From a virus (lineage: Duplodnaviria; Heunggongvirae; Uroviricota; Caudoviricetes), in the IMG/VR virus record IMGVR_UViG_3300046359_000179, positions 75,944 to 92,786 of that record: 16,843 bases of DNA; one strand, written 5' to 3'. Positions 194 to 15,644 of this stretch are shown in pieces. The position numbers and the translations under genes were made by a program. The notes under the pieces are model-generated. The model worked only from the letters and a program-made list of their open reading frames with translations. It was not told the DNA's origin and did no database searches. Position 1 is the stretch's first letter. Each line of letters starts with the position of its first letter.

Positions 194-1060
194 TTACTCT
201 TCTGCTTTGGCCGCTTTTGCGCGAGCGCGAAGCTGTTCTAGAACTGAAGATGATTTGCTTACTACCGGTTCTTCAGCTTTAGGCTGTTGAGCTTGGGTAG
301 TTTCAGTGCGCTCCGTCTTTGGCTCTTCAGTTTTAGCCGTTTCTTTTTGTTGCTTAGGCGCCGCGCTTGAACCAGTTTGTTCTGCCAGAAGCAAAGCCTC
401 TACTACAGAGCGTTCAGGTTTAACGCCCACATAATCACGCAGGTTAAACAAGTTGATTTGCTCAATAACATCATCATCAAGACTCGTCTGCTTTGGCGAG
501 AAGCTTGAAGTGCTGTAGGACGCATATTGACCAGTTTTGGTCTTCTTGATACGGAAGTTATAGCCGCCGTGGAATGCGTAAGGAACTTCCTCTAGATCTC
601 CTGATTGGAATGCAGATTGAATTTGTTTAAACACTGCAGGACCAAAATCAATGAGTTTAACCAGTTGATTCTGATCGTGCTCAATTGGTGATTCAACTAC
701 GATAACCTGACCGATATAGCTTTTCTTGCGATAATACTTTTTGCCCAAGGTCTCGTTCTTTTCATCATAGAACTTGCGTGAGAGAGCGCAAATAGGACAA
801 TCTTCGTCAAACATGGACAAACATGGAATACGATGAGTTTGGCCATTTACAACCAATTCATGTTCAAGTTTTTCCACTAGGAATTGAAGATTATTGTCTT
901 CGTCAAGGTCTGGAAGGAATCGCACAACTGCTTGCGAATCTTCTGGCATTTTCCAGAATGGGTATTTCAATTTCCACGTTTGATCGCCACCGTCGCCAGA
1001 ACCAGTAGCCTTTTTGTCAAATGCACCTTTGAGAGCGTCTAATTTGTTTTTGATTGTCAT
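194..1060 (-). CDS. 32: T4 gp32-like single-stranded DNA-binding protein
   Basis: 288 aa with AVVRFLP motif, Zn-site pattern H...C-x7-CPIC, RKKSYIGQVIVV, GPAVFKQI, GYNFRIKKTKTGQYASYSTSSF and a low-complexity C-terminal tail, all typical of gp32. Confidence 0.9.
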   Translation of the reverse strand: MTIKNKLDALKGAFDKKATGSGDGGDQTWKLKYPFWKMPEDSQAVVRFLPDLDEDNNLQFLVEKLEHELVVNGQTHRIPCLSMFDEDCPICALSRKFYDEKNETLGKKYYRKKSYIGQVIVVESPIEHDQNQLVKLIDFGPAVFKQIQSAFQSGDLEEVPYAFHGGYNFRIKKTKTGQYASYSTSSFSPKQTSLDDDVIEQINLFNLRDYVGVKPERSVVEALLLAEQTGSSAAPKQQKETAKTEEPKTERTETTQAQQPKAEEPVVSKSSSVLEQLRARAKAAKAEE

Positions 1061-3723: not shown

Positions 3724-4132
3724 TTATTTCCTCGTAAAAGGCTTCGACAAGAGAAAACATTTCTTCATATGCCTCGATTTCCCACGGCTGCTCTTCATAA
3801 GAATAATGCTCGGCATCTTCACCAAGCCAAATGTGATGCCCGTCAATTATTTGCAGGCGCCCATCTAAAAATTGCTTAACATGAATAAACTCATGGGCAA
3901 GAGCAAGACACAATTCCATTCCGCTAACTTTAGGGTCCACTACTAAAATCGCAGTGTTGTGCTCCGAGAGATAGGTGGTCCCTGCTAACCCATCGAGTTT
4001 AACAGCCGCGGTTGTCATAATCCGCAGCCCTCCCTCTAATGAATGCAGCCCCAACTTTTTAGAAAAGCAATCAGTCATCTGGGAAATATGTTCCCGCTTC
4101 TTGCTTTTCCTAGTTGAAATAGAAATTATCAT
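3716..4132 (-). CDS. Putative zincin-like metallopeptidase
   Basis: LAHEFIHVKQ (HExxH) plus downstream QPWEIEAY; ATGA overlap with the upstream gene. Confidence 0.75.
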   Translation of the reverse strand: MIISISTRKSKKREHISQMTDCFSKKLGLHSLEGGLRIMTTAAVKLDGLAGTTYLSEHNTAILVVDPKVSGMELCLALAHEFIHVKQFLDGRLQIIDGHHIWLGEDAEHYSYEEQPWEIEAYEEMFSLVEAFYEEIML

Positions 4133-5076
4133 TTGAATGCGCGATTCTTTTCAAAGTCGCCCATGTCATGCCAATCTCGATAGCTATTGATTTTTGAAAC
4201 ATCAACATCTTTAAGGTTCCGATTGATATGTTCATCTGAACCAACGTTAATAAAAATGGCATGTTTACTAGAGCGTTCAACAAAATTTGGCCAAGCTTTT
4301 GCATCATAAGCTGCAGTTGACGGGAATGGCATGGTTTTTGCCGCAGGATGAGCTTTTAGAAAGGGCATCGTAGCAGACTCAACAACTGCATCTCCGATTT
4401 CGCCTTTATGAATATTGCGAGCGACTGCTACACCGAAAGCTTTCGCTTCTGGCCAACCAATCTGTAGAGCACGGGTCATTGTCCCTGTTGATACTGCACA
4501 CCAAATTTCAGTGGGATTTAGCCCCAAATCTGTTGAAATATTTTTGCACATGTTGACTAGACCAGCAGTCACAGTCGCATTGCCAGATAATCCAAATGGA
4601 AGAAATTGTGCATTGTTATTTTCTGCCCATTTCTTTGCATAGGAGTTTAACACCGGCATGGCCGCAATACGAACAAATCGCATATCTACGTGAGGATATG
4701 CGAATAACGCCGCTTGATGGTTAGAAACTTCTTTACTAGACGGGCAAAAGAACACTACTTTTTTGTTATAGATCGCCGCCAGCATTGCGATAGCGTCCAT
4801 AGCATGCCCCTGCCGAGGGGCACAATAAACAAGAGTATCAAATGGGGATTTTGCAATAACCTGTTCTGCACCAAAAGCTTTTAAGCCACCAGGGGCAAGG
4901 TCGGCACGGAGAACAAAGCGATCATCGCCAAATTTCTCTACAATAGGTTTGTCTACCTTTGTTTTGAAATCCCCCCACATTTTAAGATAATAATCTCGAG
5001 CGCTCTTACGATCCATTCCTTGCGGGATGTCTTTGTTCGTGGCGTCATCTGTAACTGTGAAAACATTTACTCCCAA
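4129..5076 (-). CDS. Fold-type II PLP-dependent enzyme, probably acting in DNA base hypermodification
   Basis: LRADLAPGGLKAFG (Schiff-base Lys region), P-x2-GHA-x2-AIA and WCAVSTGTMTRAL (phosphate-binding loop). TTG start with SD AGGAG 6 nt upstream. Confidence 0.75.
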   Translation of the reverse strand: MGVNVFTVTDDATNKDIPQGMDRKSARDYYLKMWGDFKTKVDKPIVEKFGDDRFVLRADLAPGGLKAFGAEQVIAKSPFDTLVYCAPRQGHAMDAIAMLAAIYNKKVVFFCPSSKEVSNHQAALFAYPHVDMRFVRIAAMPVLNSYAKKWAENNNAQFLPFGLSGNATVTAGLVNMCKNISTDLGLNPTEIWCAVSTGTMTRALQIGWPEAKAFGVAVARNIHKGEIGDAVVESATMPFLKAHPAAKTMPFPSTAAYDAKAWPNFVERSSKHAIFINVGSDEHINRNLKDVDVSKINSYRDWHDMGDFEKNRAFK

Positions 5077-6038
5077 TTTTTTCTCCTGTAGTGTTGTGGG
5101 GAAATATGCACGCTAGATGCATTTTCCATGTATTTCTTAGCGTACTCTTCGCCATCCATATTGTACCATGTTTCAGGGGGTTTGACTACTTTACCGCCTG
5201 ATTTTTTATTGAGCAGATCGATAAAGCAAAGCGTCATGTTTAAACGTTCTTCGCGGGACCCAAAGAACGGGGTCCCTTTAAAATAGCCAGTTTGCGGAAG
5301 TTTACGGCCTTCATGTTCTACTGGGACTGGAGCACAGTAAAACACTTCGCAGGCAAAAGTCTTTTCAATACTTTGGCCCTGCTTAACATATTCTGAAATC
5401 AGTTCGTCGAGATTAACCCCTGCATGGCGCAAAAGATGATGTCGAATATCAATTGACCCGAATGACAGCGTTATTTCCCCGAACGGTTTCAAGCCCCTGA
5501 AATTCGTAATGATACCAGAACCTAATGAACCGAAAAGAGTCTTCCCATTAGCACGAAGAACAATATCATTCGCCTGAGAAAAAGCCGGGGTATGAGAATC
5601 ACCCACAGAAATGCCAGTGAATTTATTAGAAACCGATTGCAGATTTTCCTGTTTTAGCGAAGGGATGCCCTTAATTCGTTCACTTAGTCTATTACACCAT
5701 TCGTTTGTTATCTCTTTGCAAGTAGTCGGTGCACCAATTCGCTTACGAAGCTGTTCGCCCCATGGAGGCATATCATAATCAAGGGAGACTACATTCGGAT
5801 GCTGCATTACCCGATTAATGCGTTCATAGATTTCCTTTGTTGCTCCTCCGAAGAGGTTCAGAGTTCCGCCAAAATTGACGCCATGTTCTAGGAACACCTT
5901 TTCGTATTTGTCGATATCTGGGGAGCAACGATGATCAATTTCGGCTCCCAGTTGTTCAGCCCAAACAAGCGACCAACCAAGAACATGTGAATTTTTTAAT
6001 AACGGTATATTGCTAATAGGATTAGTGATTACGTGCAT
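5067..6038 (-). CDS. SGNH/GDSL-hydrolase-like protein in the modification cluster
   Basis: VGDSH (block I), FGSIDIRHH (block III-like) and C-terminal SSVHISPQHY (block V-like). Start moved from GTG 6050 to ATG 6038 because GAGGA lies just upstream. Confidence 0.55.
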   Translation of the reverse strand: MHVITNPISNIPLLKNSHVLGWSLVWAEQLGAEIDHRCSPDIDKYEKVFLEHGVNFGGTLNLFGGATKEIYERINRVMQHPNVVSLDYDMPPWGEQLRKRIGAPTTCKEITNEWCNRLSERIKGIPSLKQENLQSVSNKFTGISVGDSHTPAFSQANDIVLRANGKTLFGSLGSGIITNFRGLKPFGEITLSFGSIDIRHHLLRHAGVNLDELISEYVKQGQSIEKTFACEVFYCAPVPVEHEGRKLPQTGYFKGTPFFGSREERLNMTLCFIDLLNKKSGGKVVKPPETWYNMDGEEYAKKYMENASSVHISPQHYRRKNWE

Positions 6039-6052
6039 ATGATTCCTCACGA

Positions 6053-7027
6053 TTAAATTCCGAAAATCTTTTTACCGTCTTTTCGTTTTGCCAAATCAAA
6101 AGTTTCTGGAAAGATCCACTGATAGGGAATGCGTTTAGTGGGGCTTTTAACGCCATGGTTAATAGCGATGTGTTTATAAAATAGGCATGTCTTATCTTCG
6201 ACATTAACCCATTTTTGTTCTTTCATGGGGTTCCTGACATCATTACAAAGCAAATTCATTTGCTCAAGCCAAACGTGACCATACTTATTGTCAGCGACAA
6301 ATTGACCATTTGCATCAATGTGATATTTTACTTTTCCGTTAAGGCTATTCCCGCCAAAAATTTGTTGCATGCCATCAAAATGCCCAGTCCCGCCAAATAA
6401 TACAGAATTTGGGTCCACAATATGTGGATATGCAAATGCCATATATCGTGCAGTATTTTTACACGGATATAACGGACTTCTAAAACCTTGATGGGTTTTA
6501 AAATATGCTTCTAGCCGTTTTGCAAATTCCATCATAGTAAATGGTCGACCCATTGTCTTCGGTTCGTCCAATAGTGTTTGCAAATCTTCACCGGCCTTCA
6601 ATGGTCCACTAATCAACCATTCTTTAACATTAGTGCTTTTTGGAAAATAAATTTGAAAAAGATCATTACGAGCATGACGTTCAGTTTTAAATCGCTCCTG
6701 TGTTTTCGGAATGCCATCATGCAATAATGACATAAATGTCCCCCAGTGTTCATTGCTGAATGAAAACACAAGAGTCAAAAACAGCCGCATTTTGTTGTCA
6801 GTAACTAAACGCATTTCATCTACGAATGGATGTTCATGCCAATGCAGCCTATGAGAGAAAATTTGATAGTCTTCTCTCAGTAAATCATCATCTCGTTCAT
6901 CAAACGCTTTACAATACTCGAAAAATTTTTCAATTCGTTGGTCTTGCGTCCAAGATTTCATCCAACTGTCTGTAGGTTTACCATTTTTTAAATCTACTGT
7001 AACGGTATTTGGATAGGTTATATTCAT
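6053..7027 (-). CDS. aGPT-Pplase / 5-hmdU DNA kinase-like helical-superfamily protein, paralog 2
   Basis: MAFAYPHIVDPNSVLFGGTG and NVEDKTCLFYKH resemble the G-x-G and (D/E)-x-E/D-x2-C-x-(F/Y)-x-K motifs of this HhH-related family. Adjacent to a PLP enzyme gene. Confidence 0.55.
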   Translation of the reverse strand: MNITYPNTVTVDLKNGKPTDSWMKSWTQDQRIEKFFEYCKAFDERDDDLLREDYQIFSHRLHWHEHPFVDEMRLVTDNKMRLFLTLVFSFSNEHWGTFMSLLHDGIPKTQERFKTERHARNDLFQIYFPKSTNVKEWLISGPLKAGEDLQTLLDEPKTMGRPFTMMEFAKRLEAYFKTHQGFRSPLYPCKNTARYMAFAYPHIVDPNSVLFGGTGHFDGMQQIFGGNSLNGKVKYHIDANGQFVADNKYGHVWLEQMNLLCNDVRNPMKEQKWVNVEDKTCLFYKHIAINHGVKSPTKRIPYQWIFPETFDLAKRKDGKKIFGI

Positions 7028-7085
7028 ATTTTATATGTTGGTCGAGTTGGCCGTTGTGAAAATTAAAAAGGAATTATACCCCCTG

Positions 7086-8231
7086 TTATTTCAATTCCTT
7101 GCATTTTTGTTTATACTGTTCGACGGTCATCCCGTTTGCAGCAATGATTTTGTCGTCAGACGGATGCGATTTCATCCCGTTAAAAGTTTTGATGAGGCCC
7201 AAATCAAGCATCGCTTTTTGTCGGCCGAACGGATGATCTTTAATCTTGCAAGAAGACCAGATTTTATCAAAATCTAGATCGTCATAATCCGAACCCGGCT
7301 TAATATAGTTTTCTACATACCTGATAAAATCGCAACAGCAATCTTCTGCATTGTAAGGAACAGAGCCCGTATCCTCATAGATTTTAATCATAACTTCATC
7401 AAGCAATGCATCGCCTTTGTATTTTTTATTTGGCTTGACCAAATACTTTATGCATTCACGGGTATTGGTCCCATAATAAAATAGGCTTTCTCGAACAACA
7501 TACTCTGGGAACCAATCAGCAATATCGGCAACAACTGCAGCATATTGAAAGTGATATTGGCGCAATCCATGTTTCACGTTCCACTTAAGCATCCAGTCGC
7601 CAATTTGGCGCAACGTATGTTTTTGGGCAGTAGCGAGAAAGTCTGCAAGCTCTCGAGCAAGCTTTGGGACATATTCGGCAAGAAAGTAATCGCCGCCACG
7701 TTTATATTCGGAAGTCGGTTTTGGAAATGCGGGGAATTGGTAGCCCACTGAAGTGTAAAAAGATTTTTTATAATTTTTAACAATCTTCACCATATCTTCA
7801 ATAGTTCCTGCCGAATGCAAATCAAACAGGATAGTATTATGATAACCACTGGGCTTAATGGCATAATTAATTGCGCTGCCGCAAACCCGATGCAAGATAA
7901 ACACATACAGCCATTCTGGAAGAGAGAAATCAGAATGTTTTCCAGTCCAATTAGTTGCAACGGTTTTTCTAAATTCGTGGCAGGTTCCGTCCTTCATTTT
8001 GCCCCAGTACGGGTGCTTATTTGTCCACCCGTAAAAGACATCATTAATAATTTGGCTAAACCCGGCGTATTTTCGTTCAACCACATCATAAAGATGAACA
8101 TTCTTCATTAAGTCATCATCGATGCTCGAATTCATATAGTCCAAAGAACCCAAATTGCATTCCTTCTGCTGAACTTCGGCCATTCGATAGTATCGCAAAA
8201 ATTCGTCGTAATATTCCGTAGTCTCAATCAT
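7086..8231 (-). CDS. aGPT-Pplase / 5-hmdU DNA kinase-like helical-superfamily protein, paralog 1
   Basis: IADWFPEYVVRESLFYYGTN and NAEDCCCDFIRY align with the matching motifs in 6053-7027. Confidence 0.55.
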   Translation of the reverse strand: MIETTEYYDEFLRYYRMAEVQQKECNLGSLDYMNSSIDDDLMKNVHLYDVVERKYAGFSQIINDVFYGWTNKHPYWGKMKDGTCHEFRKTVATNWTGKHSDFSLPEWLYVFILHRVCGSAINYAIKPSGYHNTILFDLHSAGTIEDMVKIVKNYKKSFYTSVGYQFPAFPKPTSEYKRGGDYFLAEYVPKLARELADFLATAQKHTLRQIGDWMLKWNVKHGLRQYHFQYAAVVADIADWFPEYVVRESLFYYGTNTRECIKYLVKPNKKYKGDALLDEVMIKIYEDTGSVPYNAEDCCCDFIRYVENYIKPGSDYDDLDFDKIWSSCKIKDHPFGRQKAMLDLGLIKTFNGMKSHPSDDKIIAANGMTVEQYKQKCKELK

Positions 8232-9263: not shown

Positions 9264-11255
9264 TTAAACTAGACCAAAGGGAACGGGTTCGCCTCCGAAC
9301 TGGTCCCCGTCTAAAGATGTATCAAGGTCAGAGTCTGCAGCGACATTCTCATACACTAGTTTCTGCGCAATTTCGCTTTCACCAGAAAGATATTTTAGCA
9401 GCTTAATAACAAGTAGGGTTGCTGAAATAGTGTCGTCTGTTGCTCCTTTTTTCGCAGCATAGGACCCACCAGCAGCAATATAATTTTGAAGTTCAAAATG
9501 CAAAACATCAGAATTGATGATCAACCCGTTATTAATTCGCTCAATCAAGTTCTTCATTTGCATACACGCTAGCAGTTTTGAAGAGCCCGTAGTATAGCAC
9601 CCGAACTTTCCATTATTCTCATTATACAAATTGACGCCGTCAATATCAACGCCTTCTCCATCATCATTTTGCAACATTGCAACTAAAGCTTCGCCAATAC
9701 CATTCCGTTCAAAAGTCCAAAGAACTTCTGCTGAATTACGATTGGCATCAGAAGCCCTAAGGTGTTTAAGAAGCCATTTAATTTTGGCATAAATTAATGG
9801 GATATTAACAGTGTTTAAGCGAAGTTCGGCGACCTGTTCCAATGACGGAAACTCGAACACTTCTATAGCAGTGAAATCGCTTCCTGTGCCAGTAGCAGGA
9901 TCGACACCGACTAAGTACATTCGGTTGGGGCCTGAAACTTCTTTCCAAAATTTAAAGCCCATATTTTCAAATAGTGGCGGTTTTGTTTGTAAGGAATGAA
10001 GTTTGCGGGTATCTACTAGCAACGCATCTGAAGAAAGGAATTCGCAGTCTACTTCTTGGCGAACTTTAACTGGGCCCAATTTGCCTTTCATTTCGTCATA
10101 GTATTTTTGGTCACGTTCTGGATGTTCATGCCAAAGAGCTTTTACGGGGAAAAATGAATTTTGGCCAGAATTGGCACCGCGCCATATAGTTGCAAATAGG
10201 TCACTATCTCCGTTGGGAGTACTAGTCAGAATAAATTTGCCACCTGTGGACAATGAAGGCGCAATAGAAGCCCACATTTCTTCTTGAATTCTTCGATTTA
10301 AGAAGGCAATTTCATCGATAAAAAGGCAGTTATGACTTATGACGGAATTAGTAATATAAGAATGGACATCTTCAACCTGAACCAAATCATAGACCGTTTG
10401 GCTTTCGCAGTGTGGCAGTAGACTCAGAACTTTTAAATTCCGGTCAATAATATCGCCAGTCAATAATTCGCTAGCGGGCCTAAATTCACCGTTGGCAAAT
10501 ATCTTGTGATCTGGTGTGCAAATTAGATTAGACCTATCACTAAACTCCAGTTTCAAAGTTTTGGAGTTTTTAGTTTCTAGTAATCCGGTAAAGTCTTTAA
10601 ATCCTGAACCAGTTAAAACCTGAAAGCCCGCTATTTCGTAAAATCCTTTTCGTGGAAGTTCTGATAAGTAGTCTACAAGACTAAGGATACGTTCAATCGG
10701 AATAACTTGTATTTCACCAGTTTCTTTATTCCTAATGGTTATTTTTGTAGACCCGTCTACGCATGACGGCGAACCACCTCGACCTGTCTTTTCGCTAGTT
10801 GCTTCAGATTTTATTTTTGATCCATTGTCAAATTCTATACTCGTCCTAGAATAATACCGACATCCCGGTTTCAACCAAGCGGGCAATTCTTCATATGCGA
10901 ATTTTATGCGTGACATAATCTCTGTTGCGTGGTTCATTGCTTTAGATGCAATAACTGCAAGTTTGTCATCTGCAAAGCATGTTAACCAAAGGATGTACAT
11001 TGCGACGACAGTTGTTTTTCCCAATTGTCTGCTGGCAAGCACCACCGTGTCCTTTTTCTCATGTATGGCCGCTAACATCCGTTTTTGGTATTCATACAGT
11101 TCCATTGGCAATATTCCCTTTGTAGGGTGCTGGACTTTTACGAACTTCTCGATGAAATACACCGGATCGCTTTTACACCTTATGAGGTCTTGAATTGATT
11201 CTGGGGTATACTCAGTTTGAGCATACGCCTTTTTGATTGATAGATTGGTTGCCAT
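9264..11255 (-). CDS. 17: Large terminase subunit (T4 gp17-like) containing an intein
   Basis: Walker A ASRQLGKTT, Walker B LFIDEIAF, coupling motif LTSTPNG, nuclease motifs GVDPATG, FERNGIG and DDTISA. 663-aa precursor, 518 aa after splicing. Confidence 0.95.
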   Translation of the reverse strand: MATNLSIKKAYAQTEYTPESIQDLIRCKSDPVYFIEKFVKVQHPTKGILPMELYEYQKRMLAAIHEKKDTVVLASRQLGKTTVVAMYILWLTCFADDKLAVIASKAMNHATEIMSRIKFAYEELPAWLKPGCRYYSRTSIEFDNGSKIKSEATSEKTGRGGSPSCVDGSTKITIRNKETGEIQVIPIERILSLVDYLSELPRKGFYEIAGFQVLTGSGFKDFTGLLETKNSKTLKLEFSDRSNLICTPDHKIFANGEFRPASELLTGDIIDRNLKVLSLLPHCESQTVYDLVQVEDVHSYITNSVISHNCLFIDEIAFLNRRIQEEMWASIAPSLSTGGKFILTSTPNGDSDLFATIWRGANSGQNSFFPVKALWHEHPERDQKYYDEMKGKLGPVKVRQEVDCEFLSSDALLVDTRKLHSLQTKPPLFENMGFKFWKEVSGPNRMYLVGVDPATGTGSDFTAIEVFEFPSLEQVAELRLNTVNIPLIYAKIKWLLKHLRASDANRNSAEVLWTFERNGIGEALVAMLQNDDGEGVDIDGVNLYNENNGKFGCYTTGSSKLLACMQMKNLIERINNGLIINSDVLHFELQNYIAAGGSYAAKKGATDDTISATLLVIKLLKYLSGESEIAQKLVYENVAADSDLDTSLDGDQFGGEPVPFGLV
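10329..10763 (-). mobile_element. Mini-intein (145 aa, no homing endonuclease) in terminase
   Basis: Block A CVDGSTKI (Cys165), block B LICTPDHKIF, block F VYDLVQVEDVHSY, block G SHN followed by Cys+1. Excision rejoins GRGGSPS to CLFIDE. Confidence 0.92.
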
Positions 11256-11283
11256 AATTTTCCATATTTAAAATATAACAAAG

Positions 11284-11291
11284 TATTTATC
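11284..11291 (-). promoter_or_regulatory. Near-consensus late promoter for terminase (GATAAATA)
   Basis: 7/8 match to TATAAATA, 28 nt upstream of the terminase ATG. Confidence 0.45.
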
Positions 11292-11295
11292 AACT

Positions 11296-11332
11296 ACCTA
11301 ACAGCTAAAGGCTGTTAAGGTTGCTGTTAGGT
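11296..11332. repeat. Inverted repeat with an alternative internal arm between divergent promoters
   Basis: ACCTAACAGC (11296-11305) / GCTGTTAGGT (11323-11332) is a perfect 10-bp pair; a third arm GCTGTTAAGG lies at 11311-11320. Confidence 0.55.
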
Positions 11333-11348
11333 TTTCTTGCTTATAATT

Positions 11349-11356
11349 TATAAATA
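11349..11356 (+). promoter_or_regulatory. T4-type late promoter TATAAATA upstream of the LRR array
   Basis: Exact consensus 42 nt before the ATG at 11399; a TATAAT hexamer (11342-11347) lies just upstream. Confidence 0.65.
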
Positions 11357-11398
11357 AGGAAATGCAATAATTTACTGACGCTTGCCACGGGGAATAAA

Positions 11399-12043
11399 AT
11401 GAAATTAAAACAATTATTTGAATCTACATCTAAACAAGAAGTTGAAACAGTCTTAAACAGGTACGGGATTGAGAACTACACCATCAATGATGACTTGTCC
11501 GTGGATGTCGATGGAGATGTTGATCTAAGTGAAAATAAGTTGAGTTCGATTCCTGTCAATTTTGGGAAGATCAGTGGAATTTTTGACTGCTCTAACAACC
11601 TGCTAACCTCTTTACAAGGAGCACCAAGAGAAATAGGCGGGTATTTCGGTTGCTCTGGTAACCAATTAGCCTCCTTACAAGGAGCACCAAGAGAAGTCGG
11701 TGGGGGCTTTAAATGCTCTGATAACAAATTAGCTTCTTTGCAGGGTGCGCCAAAAGAAGTAGGCGGGCATTTTTGGTGCTATCATAACCAATTAACCTCT
11801 TTGCAAGGCGGGCCAAGAGAAGTTAATGAGGGTTTTGATTGCTGTTATAACAAACTGACATCTTTACTGGGCGCGCCTAGGGTAGTAGGCTGGCATTTCA
11901 ATTGCTTTAAAAACCGATTAACCTCTTTGCAAGGTGCACCTAGAGAAGTAGGCGGGGAGTTTAATTGCCGTTTTAATCCAAAATTGACCTCACTTGACGG
12001 AATTGGCAATGTTGCCGGACAAATTAAAAGCGACCTATCATGA
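11399..12043 (+). CDS. Variable LRR protein 1 (7 FxC units)
   Basis: MKLKQLFES N-cap, 21-aa repeats LTSLQGAPREVGGxFxCxxNx, C-cap LTSLDGIGNVAGxIxSD. Confidence 0.9.
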   Translation: MKLKQLFESTSKQEVETVLNRYGIENYTINDDLSVDVDGDVDLSENKLSSIPVNFGKISGIFDCSNNLLTSLQGAPREIGGYFGCSGNQLASLQGAPREVGGGFKCSDNKLASLQGAPKEVGGHFWCYHNQLTSLQGGPREVNEGFDCCYNKLTSLLGAPRVVGWHFNCFKNRLTSLQGAPREVGGEFNCRFNPKLTSLDGIGNVAGQIKSDLS

Positions 12044-12693
12044 AATTAAAACAATTATTCGGATTCTCGTTTTCGACCTCAAAAGAAAAAGTTGAAAACG
12101 TTCTTAAGAAATACAAAATCACAAACTATACAATCAATGACGATCTGTCTGTTGATGTGGATGAGGATATAGATTTTCGTGGTTCAAATTTAAAAAGATT
12201 TCCAATCAAATTTGGCAAAATAAAGGGAAATTTTAATTGTTCTAACACCCAGTTGGAAACGCTTAAAGATGGCCCGAATGAAGTCAGCGAAAACTTTTAC
12301 TGTCACAATAACCAATTAGTATCTTTGGAAGGTGCGCCAAAAGAAGTGGGCGGGAGTTTTTGGTGCATGAAGAACGAATTGATTTCTTTGAACGGTTCAC
12401 CAAGGGAAGTAGGCGGGGATTTCAACTGCGACTTAAACCGACTAGCATCCTTACGGGGGGCCGCGCGTGAAGTGGGTGGCGCATTTGGCTGCGAGAGTAA
12501 TGAACTGCAGACTTTGGAAGGATGCCCTCGCATTGTAGGCGGGGATTTTTATTGCTCTAAAAACAAATTAACATCTTTGCACGGCGCACCTAGAGAAATT
12601 GGCGGGGATTTTAATTGCCGTTTTAATCCAAATTTGACCTCACTTGACGGGATCGGCAATGTTGCCGGAGAAATTGAAAGCGATCTATCATGA
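12040..12693 (+). CDS. Variable LRR protein 2 (7 units, most divergent paralog)
   Basis: Same architecture; N-terminus MKLKQLFGFSF; ATGA overlap with gene 1. Confidence 0.9.
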   Translation: MKLKQLFGFSFSTSKEKVENVLKKYKITNYTINDDLSVDVDEDIDFRGSNLKRFPIKFGKIKGNFNCSNTQLETLKDGPNEVSENFYCHNNQLVSLEGAPKEVGGSFWCMKNELISLNGSPREVGGDFNCDLNRLASLRGAAREVGGAFGCESNELQTLEGCPRIVGGDFYCSKNKLTSLHGAPREIGGDFNCRFNPNLTSLDGIGNVAGEIESDLS

Positions 12694-13463
12694 AATTAAA
12701 ACAGCTGTTTGAATCAGTGTCTAAACAAGATGTGGAATCCATCTTAAAGAAATACGGGATTAAGAACTATACCATCAATGATGACATGTCAGTCGATGTT
12801 GATGGGGACGTGAAGCTAAATAATAATCACTTAAGTTCGATTCCTGTTAATTTTGGGAAAGTAAGTGGGCATTTTTGGTGTCATAAAAACCAATTAACTT
12901 CTTTACAAGGTACACCTAAAGAAGTCGGTAAGGATTTTGATTGTTCTCACAACCAATTAACTTCTTTACAAGGTGCTCCTGGGGAAGTTGGTGGCGGCTG
13001 TTTTAATTGCCACAACAACAAATTGACCTCTTTACAAGGTGCACCTAGAGAAATTGGTGGAAGTTTTTGGTGCGCTGATAACAAATTAACTTCTTTACAA
13101 GGCGGGCCAAGAGAAGTCGATGGGAGTTTTTCGTGCGCTAGTAACCAATTGTCCTCTTTACAAGGCGCTCCAAGAGAAGTTGGTGGGCATTTTTATTGCT
13201 CTAAAAACAAATTGACCTCTTTACAAGGTGCTCCTAGAGAAGTTGATGGGCATTTTTATTGCTCTAACAACCAATTAACTTCTTTGCAAGGTGCTTCAAG
13301 AGAAGTTGGCGGAGGGTTTTGGTGCCATAATAACCAATTAACTTCTCTACAAGGCGCACCTAAGGAAGTCGGTGGGGATTTTAATTGCTCTAACAATCCG
13401 AATTTGGCATCACTTGACGGAATCGGCAATGTTGCCGGGCACATTTTTAGCAATCTATCATGA
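12690..13463 (+). CDS. Variable LRR protein 3 (9 units)
   Basis: Same architecture; one repeat has a single-residue insertion (GGGCFNC). Confidence 0.9.
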   Translation: MKLKQLFESVSKQDVESILKKYGIKNYTINDDMSVDVDGDVKLNNNHLSSIPVNFGKVSGHFWCHKNQLTSLQGTPKEVGKDFDCSHNQLTSLQGAPGEVGGGCFNCHNNKLTSLQGAPREIGGSFWCADNKLTSLQGGPREVDGSFSCASNQLSSLQGAPREVGGHFYCSKNKLTSLQGAPREVDGHFYCSNNQLTSLQGASREVGGGFWCHNNQLTSLQGAPKEVGGDFNCSNNPNLASLDGIGNVAGHIFSNLS

Positions 13464-14167
13464 AATTAAGGCAATTATTCGAATCTACATCTAAGCAAGA
13501 TGTAGAATCCATCTTAAACAAATATAAAATAGCAAACTACGCTATCAATGATGACTTATCAGTAGATGTCGATGGAGATGTGGATCTGAGTAATAAGAAG
13601 TTAAGTTCGATTCCTGTTAATTTTGGGAAAGTAAGCGGAATTTTTGACTGCTCTAACAACCTGCTAACCTCTTTACAAGGCGCACCTAGGGAAGTTGGTG
13701 GTGATTTTAATTGCTCTTATAGCCAGTTAACTTCCTTACAGGGTGCTCCTACCATAGCCTATGGTAATTTTATTTGCTCTGCCAACCAATTAACATCTTT
13801 GGAAAGGGCACCTAGGGAAGTAGGTGGGGATTTTATTTGCTCTAATAACCGTTTGATTTCTTTAAAGGGTGCACCTAGAGAAGTTGGAGGGCATTTCAGT
13901 TGCGCGCGTGCCAAACTGACATCTTTAGAAGGTGCACCTAGAAAAGTAGGTGGGAATTTTTGGTGTGTTAGCAACCAATTGCCCTCTTTACAAGGCGGGC
14001 CTAAAGAAGTTGGTGGGGATTTTAACTGTAATAGTAACAAATTGACCTCTTTACAAGGCGCACCAAGAGAAGTTGGTGGGAGTTTTTGGTGCCGCAACAA
14101 TCCGAATTTGACCTCACTTAACGGAATCAGTAATGTTGGCGGAGACGTTTTTAGCGACATAAAATGA
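13460..14167 (+). CDS. Variable LRR protein 4 (8 units)
   Basis: Same architecture; ATGA overlaps. Confidence 0.9.
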   Translation: MKLRQLFESTSKQDVESILNKYKIANYAINDDLSVDVDGDVDLSNKKLSSIPVNFGKVSGIFDCSNNLLTSLQGAPREVGGDFNCSYSQLTSLQGAPTIAYGNFICSANQLTSLERAPREVGGDFICSNNRLISLKGAPREVGGHFSCARAKLTSLEGAPRKVGGNFWCVSNQLPSLQGGPKEVGGDFNCNSNKLTSLQGAPREVGGSFWCRNNPNLTSLNGISNVGGDVFSDIK

Positions 14168-14940
14168 AATTAAAACAATTATTTGAATCAGTTGCAGTCC
14201 CTAAACAAAAAGTTGAATCCATCCTTAAAAAATACAGGATCGAGAATTACGCCATTAATGATGACTTGTCAGTAGATGTCGATGGAGATGTGGATCTAAG
14301 CTACAAGAAGTTAAGTTCGATTCCTGTCAATTTTGGGAAGGTTAGTGGCAGTTTTTATTGCTCTGACAACAAATTGACTTCTTTAGAAGGTGCACCGAGA
14401 GAAGTCAGTGGGGATTTTGATTGCACTCATAACCAATTAACTTCTTTACAAGGTTCACCTAGAGAAGTAGGCGGGCATTTTTACTGCTATCATAACCAAT
14501 TAACTTCTTTACAGGGTTCACCTAGGGAAGTCAGCGGACATTTTTGGTGCTATAGCAACCAATTAACCTCTTTGCAAGAAGGTCCTAGAGAAGTCGGAGG
14601 GAATTTTAATTGCTCTGATAACGAATTGGTAACCATGCAAGGTTCACCTAGGGAAGTAGGCGGGCATTTTAACTGCTCTACCAACAAATTGACTTCTTTA
14701 CAAGGTGCACCTAAAGAAGTAGGTGGGGATTTTAGGTGCTCTGGCAACCAATTAACATCTTTGGAAAGGGCGCCTAGAGAAGTTGGTAAGGATTTTATTT
14801 GCTCTGATAACAAATTAACTTCTTTACAAGGCGCACCTAGAGAAGTTGGTGGGCATTTTTTTTGCTACAACAACGTAAATTTAAAATCACTTGACGGAAT
14901 CGGTAATGTAGCCGGAGAAATTGAAAGCGACCTATCATGA
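14164..14940 (+). CDS. Variable LRR protein 5 (9 units)
   Basis: Same architecture; ATGA overlaps. Confidence 0.9.
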   Translation: MKLKQLFESVAVPKQKVESILKKYRIENYAINDDLSVDVDGDVDLSYKKLSSIPVNFGKVSGSFYCSDNKLTSLEGAPREVSGDFDCTHNQLTSLQGSPREVGGHFYCYHNQLTSLQGSPREVSGHFWCYSNQLTSLQEGPREVGGNFNCSDNELVTMQGSPREVGGHFNCSTNKLTSLQGAPKEVGGDFRCSGNQLTSLERAPREVGKDFICSDNKLTSLQGAPREVGGHFFCYNNVNLKSLDGIGNVAGEIESDLS

Positions 14941-15644
14941 AATTAAAACAATTATTTGATTCAACTTCTAGACAAAAAGTTGAATCTATCCTGAAAAAAT
15001 ATAAAATAACGAACTACGTCATTAACGACGACTTGTCTGTAGATGTCGATGGGGATGTGGATTTGGATAGTAAACGCCTAAGTTCGATTCCTGTTAATTT
15101 CGGAAAAGTTAGTGGGAGTTTTGATTGCTATAAAAACAAATTGACCTCTTTACAAGGTGTTCCGAGAGAAGTCGGTAAGGGTTTTGATTGTTCTCATAAC
15201 CAATTAACATCTTTACAAGGTGCGCCTGGGGAAGTTGGTAGGGATTTTAACTGCTCTCATAACCAATTAACTTCTTTACAAGGTTCACCTAGGGAAGTCA
15301 ACAGACATTTTTGGTGTTCTCACAACCAATTAACTTCTTTGCAAGGAGCACCTAGAGAAGTAGGTGAGCTTTTTACTTGCGCTAATAACCAATTAACATC
15401 CTTACAAGGTGCACCTAGAGAAGTCGGTGGAGAGTTTTACTGCTATGGTAACAAATTGACCTCTTTGCAGGGTGCTCCTAGAGAAGTTGGCGGAGGGTTT
15501 TGGTGCAATAATAACGAATTGACCTCTTTGCAGGGTGCTCCTAGAGAAGTTGGTAAGGATTTTTGGTGTGGCAAAAATCCGAATTTGAAATCCCTTGACG
15601 GAATCGGCAATGTTGCCGGAGAAATTAAAAGCGACATAAAATGA
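14937..15644 (+). CDS. Variable LRR protein 6 (8 units)
   Basis: Same architecture; N-terminus MKLKQLFDS. Confidence 0.9.
   Translation: MKLKQLFDSTSRQKVESILKKYKITNYVINDDLSVDVDGDVDLDSKRLSSIPVNFGKVSGSFDCYKNKLTSLQGVPREVGKGFDCSHNQLTSLQGAPGEVGRDFNCSHNQLTSLQGSPREVNRHFWCSHNQLTSLQGAPREVGELFTCANNQLTSLQGAPREVGGEFYCYGNKLTSLQGAPREVGGGFWCNNNELTSLQGAPREVGKDFWCGKNPNLKSLDGIGNVAGEIKSDIK

Follow-up and report, generated by a model that had tools for sequence, protein, structure and literature searches.

A tandem array of leucine-rich repeat genes behind a T4-type late promoter motif in an uncultured giant phage, with a leader octapeptide that resembles T4 capsid-targeting sequences

The contig examined here ends in a run of tandem genes whose products are leucine-rich repeat (LRR) proteins that all begin with nearly the same residues. 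The locus raises the question of why a phage should place one short peptide at the front of a whole set of such proteins, and where those proteins go. The stretch of DNA analysed, called the window below, is 16,843 nucleotides long and makes up the final 16.8 kb of an IMG/VR viral contig of 92,786 bp. CheckV estimates this contig to be 26% complete, which points to a jumbo phage with a genome of about 350 kb. The source is an uncultured giant T4-related phage, and the best cultured matches of its gp32 are in RsoM2USA (46% identity), XacN1, Xoo-sp13, Atu_ph07, and PA5oct. A first-pass annotation, made from the sequence alone, had proposed that a late promoter together with the leader MKLKQLFE marks the LRR proteins for packaging in the capsid and for maturation by a protease.

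The array comprises eight paralogous plus-strand ORFs, encoding 183 to 258 amino acids each, that run to the contig end (Table 1). Every junction between neighbouring ORFs is a 4-nt ATGA overlap. In paralogue 3 the Pfam match to LRR_4 reaches 42.6 bits, above the cut-off of 27. AlphaFold, run on a 32-sequence alignment, gave a model of paralogue 1 with a mean pLDDT of 94.9 and a pTM of 0.87, which consists of one helix (residues 12-21), an N-cap, and then a regular solenoid of 21-residue repeats. All top Foldseek matches of this model are LRR domains, the best being IpaH/SspH (TM 0.54-0.61), and the best PDB matches are 3cvr, 5b0n, 5b0t, and 4nkg. By predicted structure, the array products are LRR solenoid proteins with LxxLxLxxN-type repeats. 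The repeat includes a conserved Cys and a G-A-P-x-E-V-G-G loop; terminator-like matches inside the array proved to be repeated APREVGG codons and not terminators. With pI values of 4.6-7.5, the proteins range from acidic to neutral. The annotation had found no signal peptide or TM helix, in agreement with the absence of a hydrophobic N-terminal stretch and with the all-solenoid, soluble fold of the model.

Table 1. Features of the LRR locus (positions are those of the window).
Feature	Position	Strand	Basis
Predicted T4-type late promoter TATAAATA of the LRR operon	11349..11356	+	exact match
Shine-Dalgarno-like GGGGA, 5 nt 5' of first ATG	11389..11393	+	sequence reading
Leader codons MKLKQLFE of paralogue 1, with candidate L-F-E cleavage site before S9	11399..11422	+	
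LRR paralogue 1, 214 aa	11399..12043	+	ORF; Pfam LRR_4 below curated cut-off; AlphaFold solenoid
LRR paralogue 2, 217 aa, leader MKLKQLFG without Glu8	12040..12693	+	ORF
LRR paralogue 3, 257 aa	12690..13463	+	ORF; Pfam LRR_4 E 6e-11, above cut-off
LRR paralogue 4, 235 aa, leader MKLRQLFE	13460..14167	+	ORF
LRR paralogue 5, 258 aa	14164..14940	+	ORF
LRR paralogue 6, 235 aa, leader MKLKQLFD	14937..15644	+	ORF
LRR paralogue 7, 218 aa	15641..16297	+	ORF
LRR paralogue 8, at least 183 aa, cut off by contig end	16294..16842	+	ORF

Paralogue 3 has more than 5000 homologues, nearly all of them metagenomic, and the family is common in large viral contigs of up to 597 kb. A megablast search of the array against 50,697 phage records gave no match, and searches of PHROGs and Pfam with the LRR proteins and the other leader-bearing ORFs described below returned families of unknown function only. 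The structural matches call to mind IpaH of Shigella, SspH of Salmonella, and YopM of Yersinia, effectors delivered into another cell to bind its proteins, which likewise form a solenoid, built of repeats of 20-22 residues and variable on its concave side. Identity to these is about 20%, however, and the window proteins have neither an E3-ligase domain nor a type III secretion signal; they resemble these effectors in fold alone.

The octamer TATAAATA stands in a perfect copy ahead of the array, as the annotation had stated, with about 42-43 nt between it and the first ATG. The motif is that of the T4-type late promoter, a -10 element with no -35 partner, and on the contig it lies upstream of late genes. 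Within the window alone its two copies are unremarkable (two or more occurred in 49 of 200 shuffles). Over the whole 92,786-bp contig, all nine copies are intergenic and in the sense orientation to the downstream gene, mostly 22-43 nt 5' of an ATG. The contig is 11% intergenic, 8-mers of the same composition are 27% intergenic, and none of the copies falls within 82 kb of coding DNA, where about nine would be expected. Elsewhere on the contig the octamer stands ahead of the endolysin gene, gp32, a tRNA cluster, the gene that opens the tail-fibre block, and one more gene with the leader. The related contig G001 and RsoM2USA each have a gene for a gp55-type late sigma factor (E 8e-31 and E 6e-33, respectively); none was found on the 26%-complete source contig. 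Judged by this placement, TATAAATA is a genuine T4-type late promoter motif of the source phage, and the annotation's late promoter is borne out. In the 143-bp gap ahead of the array (11256-11398) a search for sigma-70-type promoters gave only weak 9-of-12 matches, nothing comparable, and a sigma-70 promoter was rejected as an alternative for the LRR operon. Given the promoter evidence and the lack of a good sigma-70 competitor, we read the eight genes as one late operon with translational coupling. A late promoter alone is not diagnostic of internal proteins, since none of the three T4 ip genes has TATAAATA within 80 nt in the T4 record (NC_000866). The second copy in the window, at 1151-1158 on the minus strand, is 91 nt upstream of a gp32-like gene (194-1060, minus strand), a position that fits late as well as early expression of this ssDNA-binding protein.

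All eight array proteins begin MKL(K/R)QLF, and residue 8 is Glu in six, Asp in one, and Gly in one, just as the annotation had read them. In the model of paralogue 1, residues 1-8 are exactly the sole low-confidence part (pLDDT <50), and the fold begins near residue 10. Among the 32 homologues, K2 and E8 of the leader are at least 90% conserved, while indels cluster directly after FE(S/N), in what amounts to a variable-length linker. The leader DNA is nearly identical between paralogues within the array. In related loci, Leu6 is encoded by five synonymous codons and Glu8 is invariant, which argues for selection on the leader peptide and not on the RNA.

Nor is the leader confined to LRR genes; the first-pass annotation had proposed looking for such a start in other late or head genes of the genome. 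Three non-LRR ORFs of the source contig begin MKLSTLFE, MKTQELFE, and MKIQEIFD, and the gene for the last of these is 22 nt downstream of another TATAAATA. When the ORFs of the source contig are pooled with those of G001 and of 68 related loci, M[KR]xxx[LIMV][FY][ED] occurs at 40 of 1719 ORF starts (2.3%) against 4 of 6753 internal Met residues (0.06%), an excess of about 39-fold; M[KR] begins 533 of these 1719 ORFs. The 40 pattern-bearing ORFs represent 17 families without other mutual similarity. The leader is thus a conserved, disordered, portable tag on otherwise unrelated proteins. Leader patterns gave no matches in XacN1, Atu_ph07, PA5oct, and Xoo-sp13. In the 735-kb uncultured phage LR756501, a 1014-aa protein that starts MKKLNELFD (L002:5959-9003, plus strand) has the same N-cap and LRR module followed by about 800 residues of repeated small domains, so that the leader-LRR unit also serves as the front end of much larger proteins.

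Two of the non-LRR leader genes have tRNA genes close by. Contig positions 17277-25157 (L003:3277-11157) include six tRNA genes (two Ser, Phe, Asn, Met, Glu); the Asn-Met-Glu trio sits between a TATAAATA and the MKTQELFE gene, and the Ser(tga)-Phe pair is just upstream of the two-gene unit that holds the MKLSTLFE gene. The MKTQELFE gene (contig 24303-24710, 135 aa) looks truncated relative to a 201-aa paralogue, and it neighbours a mobile-element-like gene pair (198 aa and 411 aa; contig 22418-24246, minus strand; L003:8418-10246) that reads, from its sequence, as an IS607-type serine recombinase and TnpB. This pair shares 88% and 85% protein identity with a copy in G001, the genomes otherwise being about 48% identical, and two tandem copies of TATAAATA lie just upstream of it. 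On its minus strand the window encodes a P-loop kinase, an HD-domain protein, the gp32-like ssDNA-binding protein, and a T4-type large terminase that an intein appears to interrupt, besides several ORFs for which no family was matched. In the terminase (663 aa, 9264-11255, minus strand) Pfam places Terminase_6N at residues 72-157 and Terminase_6C at 449-615, with an apparent mini-intein between the ATPase and nuclease parts; this Hint-like insert starts at Cys (CVDGST), ends SHN before Cys, and has a sub-threshold match to Pfam Intein_splicing. In G001 the terminase region is split among several ORFs. In the window, a run of four ORFs of 381, 324, 327, and 315 aa (4129-8231, minus strand) is flanked by small ORFs and the terminase; they match no Pfam family save for a weak PLP-dependent-enzyme match on the last, and could form a nucleotide or DNA-modification cluster.

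The closest precedent for such a tag is in T4, where propeptides of 10-20 residues direct proteins to the prohead and are cut off behind a Glu (PMC5694885, PMC3012670). According to Mullaney and Black (1996), as cited in those two papers, the capsid-targeting sequences (CTS) or propeptides of IPI, IPII, IPIII, Alt, and gp24 are removed by the gp21 protease. The annotation had invoked the internal-protein leader MKTYQEFIAE, and this is indeed how both IPII and IPIII begin in the T4 record NC_000866, where IPI begins MKTFKEF...ITE, gp24 MAKINELLRE and then S, Alt MELITE, and gp22 MLKEQLIAE. The window leader has M1, K2, Q5, and F7 in common with MKTYQEFIAE, and its end, L-F-E before Ser, may be compared with L-R-E before Ser in gp24. 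In both systems, short N-terminal leaders stand on otherwise unrelated cargo, have an M-K-x-hydrophobic-(K/Q)-x-F core (MKTFKEF in IPI, MKTFKQF in RsoM2USA ORF89, MKLKQLF in the window), and end in (L/I)-x-E ahead of a small residue. Short, outside the folded cargo as modelled, portable, and T4-like in sequence, the window leader has several of the features by which a CTS of the T4 type would be recognized. Differences are also evident. The leader has 8 residues rather than the 10-19 of T4; its cargo is a tandem array of at least eight diversified LRR binders, whereas that of T4 consists of small globular proteins; and the LRR operon has a late promoter motif, unlike the T4 ip genes. The window proteins are acidic to neutral, whereas T4 IPII and IPIII are basic.

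The 26%-complete source contig carries no head genes, protease, or sigma factor that we could find, and what can be said of these rests on relatives. G001, an IMG/VR contig of 291,687 bp that is 82% complete, is syntenic with the source contig, with 43 common ORFs in conserved order at about 48% identity. It encodes a canonical S77 protease (E 5.6e-28) within a portal-protease-scaffold-capsid block, and its leader and LRR genes begin 1.6 kb past the capsid gene. The motif [LI]xE occurs 19 times in the G001 scaffold against 8 expected, as compared with 16 against 5.7 in T4 gp22, control motifs being flat in both. This enrichment suggests that the protease probably keeps the T4 specificity, which LFE would satisfy. 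The annotation's proposal that LFE is a matching cleavage site gains from this for the copies that have Glu8, and fits less well the two of eight that lack it. Depletion of [LI]xE from the mature LRR domains (2 seen, 12.8 expected) was considered as a sign of protease avoidance and rejected: controls are equally depleted ([LI]xQ, 0 against 9.0; [LI]xxE, 0 against 12.6), because LRR repeats fix most positions, and the comparison is uninformative. The S77 protease is present in five of five large related records and in one of three further IMG/VR records, the two without a match being fragments that are 28-34% complete. It was set aside as a discriminator, as it also occurs in Vibrio phage SRILMA, where the LRR protein lacks the leader.

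No exact TATAAATA was found upstream of the G001 leader genes. The late promoter motif in G001 is instead CTAAATAG, with 42 sites. Of these, 36 fall in intergenic DNA, which makes up 5.5% of the contig, and they mostly stand 20-50 nt 5' of an ATG (for example L085:10211-10218, G001 being L082-L096). The motif precedes the protease gene, other structural genes, and four leader-bearing genes, and also a gene starting MLVSELFE that lies shortly ahead of the LRR cluster at 167 kb. The two motifs suggest that the late -10 element has drifted within the lineage.

Evidence from virus particles comes from RsoM2USA, a Ralstonia jumbo phage with a 344-kb genome and 486 genes. Its ORF89 starts MKTFKQFLSES, with six of seven residues the same as in T4 IPI, and its homology to the window family begins at residue 1 (BLASTP 3e-11; hhalign 96%, E 1.3e-9). 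The order of parts (leader, helix, N-cap, LRR) is that of the window proteins; the differences are the leader variant MKTFKQFLSE, more degenerate repeats, and three local paralogues (ORF88-90) in place of an eight-gene array. A degenerate DNA search of the whole genome finds that ORF89 and ORF132 are the only genes starting MKTFKQF, and both are among the ten named bands obtained from purified virions by SDS-PAGE and LC-MS/MS (PMC8504454). That paper words its band assignments as 'most likely', treats ORF89 and ORF132 as uncharacterised, and makes no mention of leader, LRRs, or processing (PMC8504454). The chance that two particular genes among 486 would both fall in ten bands is about 4e-4. 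Homology to ORF89 thus suggests that the LRR proteins of the window are probably carried in the virus particle. At the level of the phage lineage, the likeness to T4 extends, in relatives, to an S77 protease, an (L/I)xE-rich scaffold, and a tagged virion protein. The earlier suggestion of a capsid-packaging tag draws strength from the T4-like portable leader and from the presence of ORF89 among the virion bands; the proteins are not basic, and in that respect they differ from T4 IPII and IPIII. Elsewhere in RsoM2USA, tandem paralogues ORF403-405 (L106:3359-6010, plus strand) and ORF357 (L107:4283-5077, minus strand) have CTS-like leaders (MTTFKEYLTE; MKLEDLFE, after an upstream start; MKFKDLYE). 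They adjoin neck, tail-sheath, and fibre genes and match PHROGs families of unknown function only; their assignment as Alt-like ADP-ribosyltransferases is unsupported by Pfam or PHROGs.

On balance we lean toward the view that the array is a late LRR operon whose products bear a CTS-type octapeptide, are loaded into the prohead, cleaved after Glu8, and injected to bind host molecules. The operon behind TATAAATA would be read by host RNA polymerase with a phage gp55-type sigma factor, and its genes would be translated by coupling through the ATGA overlaps. MKLKQLFE would be this lineage's version of the T4 capsid-targeting propeptide, bringing each LRR protein into the core of the assembling prohead, and the gp21-type prohead protease would then probably cut it off behind Glu8 (L-F-E|S). 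Once matured, the LRR proteins would be retained in the particle and pass into the host together with the DNA, and could there bind host molecules through their variable faces. Loading into the head interior, cleavage, ejection, and targets are the parts of this scheme that we infer. Against head loading stand, among other points, the Gly or Asp in place of Glu8 in two of eight copies and the acidic-to-neutral character of the proteins.

Both facts bear on an explanation in which the LRR proteins sit on the particle exterior, as adhesins or as decoration of capsid, neck, or fibres, and the leader is an uncleaved tag for assembly or docking. LRR domains are classic surface binders, the best structural matches of the window proteins are protein-binding LRRs, and acidic proteins are poorly suited to co-packing with DNA. 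Virion detection in RsoM2USA, moreover, does not place ORF89 within the particle, and ORF89 adjoins the virion-detected ORF86, which bears a Walker-A (GVGKT) motif. An exterior location is harder to reconcile with proteins as small as 183-258 aa that have no recognisable anchoring domain, with a leader that matches T4 head propeptides as far as the Glu-ended (L/I)xE site, and with leader and LRR genes in G001 that adjoin protease, scaffold, and capsid genes, not tail genes. We regard it as unlikely, yet as a live rival, because of the copies without Glu8, the acidity, an S77 protease that does not discriminate, and a depletion test that does not inform.

The shared N-terminus might instead serve expression, stability, or some other sorting of late cytoplasmic binders that act in assembly or lysis and are never packaged. 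Highly expressed phage genes commonly have AAA as their second codon and begin A/T-rich, M[KR] starts are frequent in the pooled ORFs (533 of 1719), and near-identity of the leader DNA within the array is what recent duplication or gene conversion would give. Expression or duplication accounts poorly for a Leu6 kept through five synonymous codons, for an E8 invariant across distant relatives, and for a motif with an approximately 39-fold excess over internal Met sites and a spread over 17 families; and, as the homologue ORF89 is found in purified RsoM2USA virions, a role outside the virion becomes less likely, so that we consider this account more improbable than the exterior one. By far the least credible is the notion that there is no signal at all, the start being merely inherited from a common ancestor and TATAAATA a chance A/T-rich octamer. 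The eight genes are paralogues and the two copies in the window are within shuffle expectation, but non-homologous families share the leader, and the nine contig octamers are all intergenic and sense with none in 82 kb of coding DNA, two findings that already contradict such a reading.

Among known systems outside T4, phiKZ-like giant phages such as SPN3US eject many head-packaged proteins into the host, which a gp21-related protease has first cut behind Glu; the propeptides there, however, are mostly >100 residues long, the motif is (A/S/G)-x-E, and the lineage is different (PMC5694885, PMC7411985). No LRR arrays are reported for SPN3US-type phages. In the literature searched, combining capsid targeting sequences with either jumbo phages or LRR proteins led only to studies of T4 and of phiKZ-like phages, and to no paper that describes the present arrangement. 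The CTS principle of T4 is known; what is new is the leader variant, the class of cargo, and a much wider spread.

The textbook example of phage proteins that travel into the host with the DNA and disarm its defences is the set of T4 internal proteins, usually regarded as a small peculiarity of T-even phages. A short and recognisable loading tag would alter that picture. A doubtful but possible extension of the head-loading reading is that T4-related jumbo phages maintain germline libraries of LRR binders, CTS-loaded and injected to neutralise host defence or other host proteins. Such a library, on the same tentative footing, might combine a fixed scaffold with variable concave faces, as a ready-made panel delivered with the DNA. 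If this is true, the LRR protein-delivery arsenal would be far larger and more modular than the three T4 internal proteins, and its members would be natural candidate binders of host immunity proteins. The cultured phage RsoM2USA offers a system in which the proposed head-loading tag can be tested directly, and the tag itself could serve for packaging foreign proteins into jumbo-phage capsids. If the tag marks dozens of unrelated late proteins in uncultured jumbo phages, whole arrays of diversified LRR binders among them, the injected proteome of these phages would be predictable from sequence alone, and large.
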